In this document: piece by piece, positions 49,168 through 53,235 of the stretch
Layout of the letters: each line of letters opens with the position of its first letter
Position numbering within the stretch: position 1 is the first letter of the stretch
Assembly (NCBI GenBank): GCA_001938485.1
Contig: MQRK01199891.1
Coordinates: forward strand, 19,267 to 83,266
Source of the DNA: Girardia tigrina
Taxonomy: Eukaryota
Reading direction: 5' to 3'
DNA length: 64,000 bases
Program-made: the position numbers and the translations under genes
The notes under the pieces: generated by a model
Told to the model about the DNA's origin: nothing
The model's database searches: none
Seen by the model: the letters and a program-made list of their open reading frames with translations, nothing else

Positions 49168-50310
49168 TTAAACTAAAATATATTTAGAGGAAAATTTATT
49201 TTTATTAAAATCTATGGGAAAAGATGTTGTATTATTAAAAGGATATCTTTTATCATAACCAGAAGATGCCTGCTTAGTTCTTGATACTATATTAATTTTA
49301 TGCTTTTTAGAAACAATATGTTTCTCTTCTTTCAATATTGTTTCATTATCAAATAAAATATTAACCCTATTTTCAAAAGTTACATCCTTTACTCCCTTAA
49401 TTTTACAAGTTTCTCCCCTTTTATTTTTTCCAACTAAAATATGTCTAAAACTATAATCTTTTGATTGAATATCAACCATTTCTTCAATAATTTTACACCT
49501 TCCATTTCGTCTTTAAATTTTCCCAAATCTGAATTATGTAACCAATATTTTAATTTATCATTAATATTTTCTAAATTGTCATAAATTTGTACAAAGAAAG
49601 AATCTGTATCAGTATAATGGAGTAATACATTTCCAGACTCAAAGTTCCAAATTCTATGCAATCCATCGCATGCAAATTGAAACATTAAAAGTTTCGATTT
49701 TTCCAAAACAGTAAATCCAATATAATTAAATTTATCAAATTTGATTGAGGTTTTCCTCATTTCTACAGCACAAAGTTTTTTTATTAAAGGGTGTCAAAGA
49801 TTTATATTCTGGTTTACCTGCCAATTTTTCAAATTTTTGTCTTTTATTAACAATTTTAATGTTAGAGTGATTCCGGACATTTTCCAAGGTTTTGCCGTAA
49901 AATGAGTTATTCATTAAATTGAAAAAGAAATCCCCAAATGATCCTTTTTCTGCCTCCCGTCATTTTTGTATATTAAATTCTATATAAGGTCTCAACCAAG
50001 GAGATTTCTTATATACCAATTTCCTATGAATTTTTTCCAGTTCCATTCCTTCTTTCAGATAAAAATCCAATGTTCTTCCTTCAGTAATATATTTCTTTTT
50101 ATCAAGGAATGTCTGCACTAATTTCTCGGTTTTATCTCACCTTTCAGGATAAACGGATTTTTCATACGATGAAAATTCTTCAACAGGAGTATCAGGAACT
50201 AATCTTTCAGGACAAAATGGATAATAAAATGATTTTTTTCTTAATTGAATCAGGATATTTGAGATTAAAATCTTAAACATATCCTTCATCTGATTCTTCA
50301 TCCGATGGCA
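49168..50310 (-). pseudogene. Family B (protein-primed type) DNA polymerase of a Polinton/Maverick, C-terminal half
   Basis: EGY....LKYP, YPFCPE, LMNNSFYGKTLENVR, YIGFTVLEKSKLLM, YTDTDS, LGKFKDEM, KGVK, YDKRY. Multiple frameshifts. Confidence 0.9.
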
Positions 50311-51892
50311 TAAGAGTAAAACAATACTGTCCTTGCTTTGTAGAAAACTTTGTAGAAAAAAAGCCGTTTTCTTCGTCCAGCTCAACCTGATAATAAGCAT
50401 TTCCAAGGTCAATCGAGCTAAAATACTTGGCACCTCCTAAAGCATCCAACATCTCATCAACAGTGGGCATCGGAAAAGCTTGTCTCTCCGTTATTGCATT
50501 TAAACGCCTAAAATCCAAACAGATACGAATATCCTTCTTCTCTTATTTCCACACACAAATTAATGGTGTGTTCCAAGGTGAATTACACTTCCGAATGATA
50601 TTATTATCATACAATTTTTTTATAGTCTCCATGATTTTTTCTTCGAGATGCATTAGTTGACGAAAAGGTTTTAAATTAATTGACCCTCCATTCGTCTTAA
50701 TATGATGTTTTGCTAAACTGGTACATCGGATATCCCATTTTTCAGCCATGAATACTTCTGCCTGATTCAGAATGACCTCTAACAGTTTTGAATCTACTTT
50801 ACCTATGCAATCTAACACTCTTTTTTATCTCTCACCTGGCCTTATCACCCTGCCGAATTTCGCTTCGATGTTACACACACTTCCACGTGCTTCCCTTGAT
50901 ACATTATTGTCTTGAGATTTGTTCCTTTGTATGGAATAACCGAAAATTTTCATGAATACCATGACTCCTATCAGTTCCTGAACCACACTCCAACACTGCA
51001 CAGGTCTTCTTTATTGGCAGTTTCGGCTGAAATGTCCTGGTTGATGACAAGTATAACATTTGTACTATTTTGATTCCTCTTTTAGGAGTTGTTTTCTCGG
51101 CTGACTCTGATTTAGCCATTTTTTAGTTACCTCAGGAGCCCTGTTGTTCTGAACAACCTCTCGATAACTTCGGGTGGCATTGATACTGCTCTTCTTTTCG
51201 TGGTTTATTTCGTCTACGAGTGCAACGAACTCAAATATTTCCTTGACACTCTTTAATTTCTGTAATTTAATTTCACGAACAACATCTTCATCATCAATGC
51301 AATGAATTAACATTTGAGCTTTCAGCTCTTCTTACTCTAGTCTATGCGACAACGCATTTTTTACCAGCCGGTCTACTTTTTTGAAAAAAGTCTGTGCGTT
51401 ATCAGTACCTTTGCAATAACTCAACAGTTTTTCTCAGTCCGTCTTGGCTGCTCTTGGTTTCTCAAACACTAGTCTTAACCGATCCTCAAAATTATCAGCT
51501 TTACCAACAGTGTTCTCATATGATTTCAAGAGATCTTTATGTATCATGGATTAAATACATGTTTGCCATTTCTTTTGATTAATTTTGGCTGCTTCAAAAT
51601 ATCTTCTGCAGCGATAAATAAATTTCTCTAGGTCTTCTCCGATCTGGAACATGTCGGGAATCAGTCGGTTCGTGATTGAATCCGCTATCGCTGCCACCAT
51701 GTTAGGTTGGGAATTATCTTCCATTCTAAATCAAAGGAAATTAAAACTTGTAAAATTTATTCAAAATTTACAAAAGGTTAACTTTGTTATTTAAACAAAT
51801 TTTCATTTTTTTATTTTCTTTTTTTTTAATTTTCCAATATTTTTTTTAATTTCGATTATAATTCGAAATATTTTAAAAAACCGAATTTCCTA
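50310..51892 (-). mobile_element. Ty3/gypsy 5' half (LTR end, PBS, gag, RT start) lying between the Polinton fragments
   Basis: LTR ends ...CCAACCTAACA at 51700; PBS TGGTGGCAGCG at 51689-51699. Gag RLIPDMF..GED.EKFI..C.RYF. SPWNTPLICVWK, LDFRRLNAITERQAFPMP, YFSSIDLGNAYYQV. Same lineage as the 38194 element. Confidence 0.9.
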
Positions 51893-51899
51893 TATCTGA

Positions 51900-52136
51900 A
51901 AATTAAATTATCAATGCGTTGCAAATATCAATGGGATCTGTTGTTTAGGACAGTTGAAATATTATTGTTCCATTACTGTTTTTATACGATTCCGATCCAG
52001 ATGTTGGAGCCAATTTTATTATATCGGATTTCTTCAGAACGTGGTTAAATTGCTTATTAGAATCGAGATTCAGAATTCCCAAAGGAATCAGTCCCGATAT
52101 CAGTTGAGATACTGGTTTTTCAAAGCTCGTTTCCAT
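51900..52136 (-). pseudogene. Possible Polinton capsid-type protein N-terminus
   Basis: LNLD...VLKKSDIIKLAPTS.....NSNGTIIFQL...DPIDICNALI resembles Polinton capsid N-termini as I recall them. It follows the integrase tail directly. Confidence 0.45.
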
Positions 52137-52151
52137 TTTTTAATTTGTTAC

Positions 52152-52313
52152 TTATTTTGTATAGAAAGAAGATTTTTGTAAATCTGGTTCATAATATCGA
52201 CTGAATATTTTCCGTCCCAATTCATCCATTAATTTATATGTTGCGGGGTATTCCTCATCAATAACTTTTCGAATCAGGAAAATTTCTCGTGCCCATTTCA
52301 CTTCATATCCTTT
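52152..52313 (-). pseudogene. Polinton/Maverick-type integrase C-terminal segment
   Basis: KGYEVKWAREIFLIRKVIDEEYPATYKLMDELGRKIFSRYYEPDLQK fits the KGY..NW..EIF.I..V....P.TY.L.D..G..I.G.FYE.ELQK tail (below the ORF-track cutoff). Confidence 0.75.
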
Positions 52314-53235
52314 ACGATTCGATTTTGTAATATTTCTCGATTCAATTTACAATCATTTAATATAACCTCACGATATAAATTTTCCCCTGTTGATTGATGA
52401 AAATGAAATGCAAAATACATTTTATTGCTCAAATAATGGGATAATTTTATGTCAGCATTATGTACAACTGTAGCATCGGGTATCTTTTCTAGAGAAACAT
52501 ATAGACCCTTTTAATTTGTTGAATACAGTGGTTTTCCACAACGGTTTTCTTTTTCTTTTCGAATAAATCTCATTCCATCTGCTGAAAGAGATGACATTAA
52601 AACTGTTGCTAAATTCTTTTTTTGAACTGGTACTGCTTTTCGAGCTTGATGCTTCTTCGGTTTTAACATATCTGGTCTTTCTTGTATTTGAATGCCTTGA
52701 GCTTCAATAAATTCTGCTGATTTAAGAAATGCCAAATTAAAATCTTTATAATTAACTGAGTATAATAATACAAATTCTCCTTTACATTCTCCATCCGGAT
52801 CCATTACTCCTTTTCGAAATACAGATTCTCTTGTTATATATCAGACTTTGGCAGTTAATGTTAAAGAAGAATCAATTTTTAGTTGTTTCGTTTGAAATGC
52901 TGCTTCACAATTTTCTGGTAAGATATCAATTGGTCTCGGTATAGCATCTATTTTAATAAGAAGGAGTGACTCCATTTTCCACAATGAAAAACATAATTTG
53001 CACGTTTGACTATACACTCTCGTACTTTTGCTCTTCTAAATCCTGATTCTTGATACAAATGATATAAAACATTTTTCTCTTCTTTAATTTGTAAAGGATA
53101 AGCTTCAGCAAATTCTACGACATCAATTAATGAATATATTTTGCCTACTTCTGTTTGTGAACAATCATACGCTACTATATACATCGTTGGAGATATATAT
53201 AAGAATAAAATCATAGTTAATGATAACCACCACAT
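52290..53235 (-). pseudogene. Chuvirus/gB-like (class III fusogen) envelope glycoprotein, N-terminal part
   Basis: Hydrophobic signal MWWLSLTMILFLYISPTMYIV, then AYDC...YSLIDV, LYQE....AKVRECIV....VFHCGKWSH. After a frameshift: LPENCEAAF, GVMDPDGECKG, RCGKPLYSTN. Past an in-frame stop: YLSNK...LYREVILNDCKLNREILQN. Confidence 0.75.

Follow-up and report, generated by a model that had tools for sequence, protein, structure and literature searches.

A 64,000-nucleotide stretch of the Girardia tigrina genome (the window) carries a fragment of a gB-like fusion glycoprotein that directly abuts the integrase of a Polinton (Maverick), which raises the question whether the glycoprotein is a gene of the Polinton or belongs to a different element. 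The original prediction placed a glycoprotein, a Polinton-type integrase tail, a capsid-like frame, a gypsy insert and a protein-primed DNA polymerase B (pPolB) on the minus strand. It proposed a fusogen-bearing Maverick or a retroelement-Maverick chimera, with an env-bearing LTR element inserted in a Polinton and a subsequent deletion as the simpler alternative. Each of these parts was found (PolB by motif and context), and three-frame minus-strand translation confirmed that glycoprotein, integrase tail, capsid-like frame and PolB all lie on the minus strand. If a fusogen-bearing Polinton subfamily existed in this genome, enveloped Mavericks would be extended beyond nematodes and errantiviruses would be indicated as the donor. 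The locus is, however, likely a nested-repeat scar, that is, ordinary genome debris rather than a fusogen-bearing Polinton.

The glycoprotein fragment and its parent retrotransposon

The glycoprotein fragment (52314..53235, minus strand) begins with a hydrophobic stretch at 53235 and contains two stretches above the Pfam cut-off for PF24664, Monjiviricetes_fusion (E = 8.9e-10 and 3.1e-10), covering positions 6-93 and 248-348 of the 653 profile positions. It is the N-terminal half of a chuvirus-G/gB-type env of a gag-env-pol Ty3/gypsy element, with ~93% DNA identity to copies of that family. The reading frame is damaged by a frameshift near 52955, by stops at about 52843 and 52513 and by a 159-base in-frame deletion at a 13-base repeat near 52770-52781, and the membrane anchor is missing together with the C-terminal half. 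Homolog searches for the glycoprotein returned 0, 3 and 5 matches, six proteins altogether and none of them named, and PDB sequence searches found nothing relevant to it. A fold model of the family env stretch was of low confidence (pLDDT 45). Its top viral structure matches were chu-like glycoproteins (E = 5.6e-13, TM about 0.14) and its top PDB structure match was HSV-1 gB (E = 3.8e-3, weak); these matches, with their low TM-scores, are only consistent with a class III fold and fall short of proof.

Searching the genome with window bases 52000-53300 yielded 1,966 env candidates. Among the best 40, which were scored, 39 other loci matched at ~93%, and none of them extended past window base 52315. 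Twenty wide contexts of the family (10 chosen by env and 10 by linked reverse transcriptase [RT]) were then compared. Protease followed env in 17 of the 20. Upstream of env, a spacer was present in 16, gag in 8 and a 5' LTR in 6; contexts that miss one of these parts are copies interrupted by insertions, deletions or contig ends. The layout of the family is LTR-PBS-gag-spacer-env-protease-RT-RNaseH-integrase-LTR. Downstream of env in the copies, Pfam recognized gag-asp_proteas, RVT_1, RT_RNaseH and Integrase_H2C2, in gypsy order. One internally deleted copy (C210766) is bounded by two 680-base TG..CA LTRs that are 95% identical and flanked by a 4-base target duplication. A PBS-like motif starting with TGG lies 11 bases past the 5' LTR in five contexts, and in five the 3' LTR has a purine tract before it. 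Judged from domain positions, the element measures about 11-12 kb with LTRs of about 680 bases, and its copies are 90-95% alike.

Further parts of the same element lie upstream of the glycoprotein in the window, on the same strand. The gag-env spacer (53236..54384) matches at 90-93% in the 16 contexts that contain it. The gag (55225..56566; capsid plus zinc knuckles) matches family gag at 93-95%, and Pfam found Retrotrans_gag and zinc knuckles (zf-CCHC) in the window's own 55552-56490. The element is thus present as two pieces, 52314-54384 and 55225-56566, which are separated by a mariner fragment (54385..55224; HTH_48 Mos1, E = 8.4e-18) inserted at a TA. The mariner has inverted ends of ~30 bases with TA on either side, and its flanks are contiguous in the env family copies. 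Beyond the gag end, where the 5' LTR is missing, lies a LINE endonuclease fragment (Exo_endo_phos_2, weak). Given the shared layout, the LTRs, the gypsy-order pol domains and the spacer and gag present in the window itself, the glycoprotein is the env of a high-copy gag-env-pol Ty3/gypsy family and not a Polinton gene.

Whether this family encodes a single polyprotein was assessed by a scripted test of open frames across domain boundaries. The spacer-env and env-protease boundaries were each in a single open frame in 3 of the 20 contexts, the RT-RNase H boundary in one and the RNase H-integrase boundary in three; the gag-spacer boundary was in a single frame in none of the 20. Other env families are abundant in this genome (4,312 candidates, 68 scored), with open frames of up to 4,142 codons. 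Protease or RT followed env in 9 of 10 of their contexts. In two contexts Ty3 capsid, zinc knuckle and env shared one frame, and in one context a single frame ran from env through integrase. A single polyprotein is therefore present in relatives and is presumed for the window's env family. In the intact element, env would likely be made within one long polyprotein, in which the ectodomain would enter the ER by way of an internal hydrophobic signal and the C-terminal env anchor would return protease-RT-integrase to the cytosol, after which proteases would free the parts.

The spacer, of ~430 codons, matched no Pfam family. It contains one or two candidate ubiquitin-like stretches, assigned to Atlas ubiquitin-family clusters at 0.85-0.88 (below 0.9); its ISG15 match was weak (E = 1.3), no ubiquitin-like match was found for it among representatives, and its model (pLDDT 46) gave no fold match.

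The env-carrying element is a compact gag-env-pol gypsy family, one more of the kind published for flatworms. According to Chary and Hayashi, the errantiviruses of flatworms, nematodes and bryozoans have no env other than the gB type, in GAG-ENV-POL order; they list six such Ty3/gypsy errantiviruses (1-6) with HSV/gB-type env from Schmidtea mediterranea (PMC13524379). The present family shares with these the Ty3/gypsy pol, the gag-env-pol order and the gB-type env, and in a by-eye comparison a 30-residue stretch of the window env had 23 and 24 identities to the env of Smed_errantivirus_1 and Smed_errantivirus_2 (PMC13524379), a resemblance that suggests a flatworm host. Unlike them, it belongs to another host genome and another family, and its env copies are mostly broken. 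The words Maverick, Polinton and ubiquitin do not occur in the main text of that article. As described by Arkhipova and Yushenova (PMC6431247), the giant planarian gypsy element Burro/GYPSM1 also has an in-frame env between gag and pol, with matches to mononegavirus fusion glycoproteins, and a Ubi2/SUMO-like motif upstream of env. The position of env between gag and pol and the retrotrans_gag domain with CCHC knuckles are common to both. However, Burro/GYPSM1 exceeds 30 kb whereas the present family is compact, and by Pfam none of the Burro cargo described there (MATH, BIR, ankyrin and BCL-2) was found in the spacer of the env family. The family works like a compact Burro, although we do not class it as one.

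The Polinton family and its remains in the window

The other side of the locus consists of Polinton fragments, all on the minus strand, interrupted by a second retroelement. The integrase C-terminal tail (52158..52313) has DNA matches of 75-91%. A genome search with it gave 952 candidates, the best 40 of which were scored. Integrase sequence with an rve core lay directly upstream of the tail in 17 of 19 fetched copies (11 distinct sequences), and the remaining two loci start further inside. The tail is followed by the N-terminal 80 codons of the major capsid gene (51915..52151), 85% identical to the start of the family capsid protein, whose full-length form contains a double-jelly-roll domain (PF21738, E = 3.7e-14). 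The interval 50307..51907 is a fragment of a second gypsy element, unrelated to the env family, that comprises leader, gag and the start of RT (zf-CCHC and RVT_1). It has no LTR and is abrupt at either end; its RT is only 27-35% identical to that of the env family, and bases 51021-51887 match another locus at 88%. Beyond it lies the C-terminal part of a DNA polymerase B (49168..50306), with stops and frameshifts, to which the best 40 of 903 candidates, when scored, matched at 79-92% in DNA. No polymerase family was recognized by Pfam in this interval. Its translation contains what we take to be type-B polymerase motifs, and it is named pPolB by motif and by its place in Polinton contexts only. 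The right terminal inverted repeat of the Polinton was placed at about 48992..49110 (minus strand), since the matching ends of three copies fall at 48982-48993; in C147822 the same 119 bases (89%) lie upstream of the ATPase and face outward. The adjoining region 48300-49010 was rejected as a Polinton part, with only short matches of 65-80% and no Pfam match.

To place these fragments within their family, we assembled 30 wide Polinton contexts (503,488 bases), 20 drawn from the ATPase matches found on long contigs (128 scored) and 10 from the integrase and PolB searches. The contexts reach up to 10 kb each way and, the assembly being fragmented, most are smaller than a whole element. The order of genes was fixed: ATPase, a PLA2-like gene, integrase, major capsid and then other virion genes; PolB and the terminal repeats occupied the ends. 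PLA2 lay directly upstream of integrase in 23 of the 25 contexts having an integrase core. The common orientation of integrase, capsid and PolB in the window is the native Polinton layout, as seen in C235938 and C187353. The family thus has ATPase, integrase, double-jelly-roll capsid, pPolB (by motif and context) and terminal inverted repeats, of which the window keeps fragments and one end. Together with the PLA2-like gene, this set (A32-like ATPase, rve integrase and the rest) resembles that of adintovirus-type Polintons, for which PLA2-like entry genes (PLA2X) are described as typical (PMC8502044). Unlike those, the window retains only an integrase tail, a capsid start, a polymerase end and one terminal repeat.

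The proposal of a fusogen-bearing Maverick was not borne out by these contexts. Using 31 env queries from many families, no env was found in 29 of the 30, and the remaining one contained an env-plus-protease fragment of a different, unrelated retroelement family, on the opposite strand and 3 kb before the ATPase. The glycoprotein was therefore not seen as a gene of the Polinton family. Conversely, when Polinton proteins were searched against the 20 env contexts, the only matches were weak ones of integrase to retroelement integrases (three contexts, 22-26%) and a single piece of PolB (39%), which lay on the other strand at a distance of about 7 kb from env.

The junction at 52314/52313

As predicted, the glycoprotein frame switches to integrase near 52313 in the absence of a visible LTR: the switch is blunt, at 52314/52313 (junction feature 52313..52315), and no LTR of the env family was found in the window or within 10 kb on either side. 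Both genes are truncated there, as also predicted, env lacking its C-terminal half and integrase being reduced to its tail. The two lie in different frames, and the env frame meets a stop five codons on; no fusion protein is therefore encoded, and an env-integrase fusion was ruled out. No part of the locus is predicted to be functional, env being frameshifted and anchorless, the integrase coreless and the capsid gene ~80 codons long.

Only one instance of the junction was found in the genome. With a 91-base query crossing the join, the window alone spanned it among the 40 scored of 411 candidates, and a 24-base junction pattern allowing up to two mismatches matched at just two sites in 1.43 Gb, namely the window and an unrelated position. 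Two candidates for a second copy were rejected: C212606, the unrelated position of the pattern search, has no env or integrase around it, and C11712, whose integrase match extends into the env side by 35 bases, is an ordinary Polinton in which the integrase core lies upstream and env is lacking. Env continued across the breakpoint position in all 12 env contexts checked. One copy, C68520, shares the window's internal deletion yet runs on into the env C-terminus and protease. The idea of a retroelement-Maverick chimera that had propagated was accordingly not supported, the junction having been found at this locus only.

Origin of the locus

We consider it very probable that the broken gypsy env came to abut the Polinton integrase tail by insertion in or beside a Polinton followed by later deletion. 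This is the simpler history that had been put forward at the outset, and it is favoured by the gene orders of the env and Polinton families and by the single junction. An env-carrying gypsy copy would have inserted in or next to the Polinton with matching orientation, as chance alone would give in one case of two, and a second gypsy would have inserted further along the Polinton. The LTRs, the env element's 3' half, the left arm of the Polinton and the interval between capsid and polymerase would then have been lost through later deletions. Two more LTR-less joins at the locus, at about 51910 and 50306, fit repeated deletion. This explanation draws on 40 of the 1,966 env candidates, 40 of the 952 integrase candidates and the 30 Polinton contexts; the sequence of events, and the join being genomic rather than an assembly error, are inferred.

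That the junction is instead an assembly artefact, two repeat families having been joined by a chimeric read or a misjoin, appears unlikely. The assembly is fragmented (255,254 contigs), three abrupt LTR-less joins fall inside 2 kb, and Logan contigs of six public runs stop or diverge from the window at 52313 and 52315. None of the contigs listed from these runs bridges the junction, which is no proof of its absence, as contigs drop rare variants and the samples are probably other individuals, in which a one-off deletion would likewise be missing. A private deletion and an assembly error are both possible on the contig data. However, there is no N gap within 48.9-54.8 kb and the join shows no bases common to its two sides, which speaks against a misjoin by repeat overlap.

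Insertion followed by deletion is also to be weighed against two further readings, both very improbable. In the first, the gag-env-integrase-capsid block is a non-autonomous chimera mobilised as a unit by Polinton ends, in line with the one terminal repeat present and the common orientation of all fragments; however, no second terminal repeat, ATPase, PLA2 or integrase core was found in the window or within 10 kb on either side, and the junction was found only once. In the second, to which we give an equally slim chance, the junction would be a snapshot of fusogen gain, in which an env-carrying gypsy element inserts into a Polinton, the retroelement is then lost by deletion, and a rare Polinton subfamily of the flatworm, missed by the sampling, keeps the env, repeating the capture seen in nematode Mavericks.

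The least probable reading, and one largely refuted, is that the host has a lineage of fusogen-bearing Polintons of which the window is a decayed copy: env and Polinton genes are co-oriented and touching, nematode Mavericks offer a precedent (10.1101/2022.07.12.499685) and the sampling of 30 contexts is incomplete, but the env still has 4.2 kb of its own retroelement beside it (spacer and gag) and shares 93% identity with copies bounded by LTRs, neither gene survives the join, the only env in a Polinton context comes with a retroviral protease, and the Polinton family already has a PLA2-type entry gene. In nematode Mavericks, by the accounts available, the fusogen MFUS-1 is intact and a conserved core gene (10.1101/2022.07.12.499685, 10.1101/2023.08.22.554363). 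The present locus is like these in having a gB-like class III fusogen near a Polinton integrase, capsid and pPolB. Unlike theirs, its fusogen is a retroelement env that adjoins a single Polinton copy and is missing from the Polinton family, and it lacks the marks of a Maverick fusogen, being broken, anchorless and still joined to spacer and gag. None of the titles listed by a literature search, read mostly as titles and the beginnings of abstracts, reports an env-bearing Polinton outside nematodes, which is not to claim that none is in print. The adjacency at this locus is a warning against taking neighbourhood for linkage. All the same, a gB-type env and a Polinton do come together at individual loci of such genomes, as in the two cases here, and such meetings are raw material for fusogen capture.

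Deleted env copies and the flanks of the env family

The internal deletion in the window's env (PF24664; 52314-53235, minus strand) was also found in the copy on contig C68520 of the G. tigrina assembly, where env and then protease run on normally. The C68520 copy is either a sister of the window's copy or the product of a deletion that recurred at a 13-base repeat. The post-integrase tail of this gag-env-pol Ty3/gypsy family was present again in seven other contexts. Within this tail, 3' of the integrase, lies a candidate fibronectin type III domain (positions 2973-3878 of the fetched locus L120; E = 2.4e-5, slightly below the cut-off). 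One or two stretches of the gag-env spacer (window 53370-54136) look ubiquitin-like; no relatives of these stretches were found among the 1.84 billion representatives searched.

Many other PF24664 env families were observed in the assembly, with 32 to 37% identity to the window's env. The gag-to-env interval in two of them spans approximately 1,700 to 2,100 codons and had no Pfam match, and in one a weak Bcl-2 match (E = 0.0086) was located immediately upstream of env, a placement like that in Burro, the giant planarian gypsy elements.

The Polinton family and its neighbors

The Polinton family was very abundant in the assembly, with 2,349 candidates for its ATPase, of which 128 were scored. 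Open frames were present in most of these scored matches, which, three identical copies aside, were 74 to 84% identical. On contig C248821, an env-plus-protease fragment adjoins a Polinton approximately 3 kb before the ATPase, on the opposite strand; it belongs to a family other than that of the window's env and is a second, independent case beside a Polinton.

Other repeats in the window

An inverted repeat pair (90%; 51722-51907 and 58647-58875) matches either a short dispersed repeat or the leader of the second, unrelated gypsy family. The window also contains another gypsy gag-protease-RT fragment (39230-40655, plus strand) and an element with long inverted ends made of 17-base tandem repeats (22595-25046). 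Weak Pfam matches on the minus strand correspond to a LINE endonuclease fragment (56441-57301), which cuts the env element at its 5' end, and a hAT-like transposase fragment (59403-60139).
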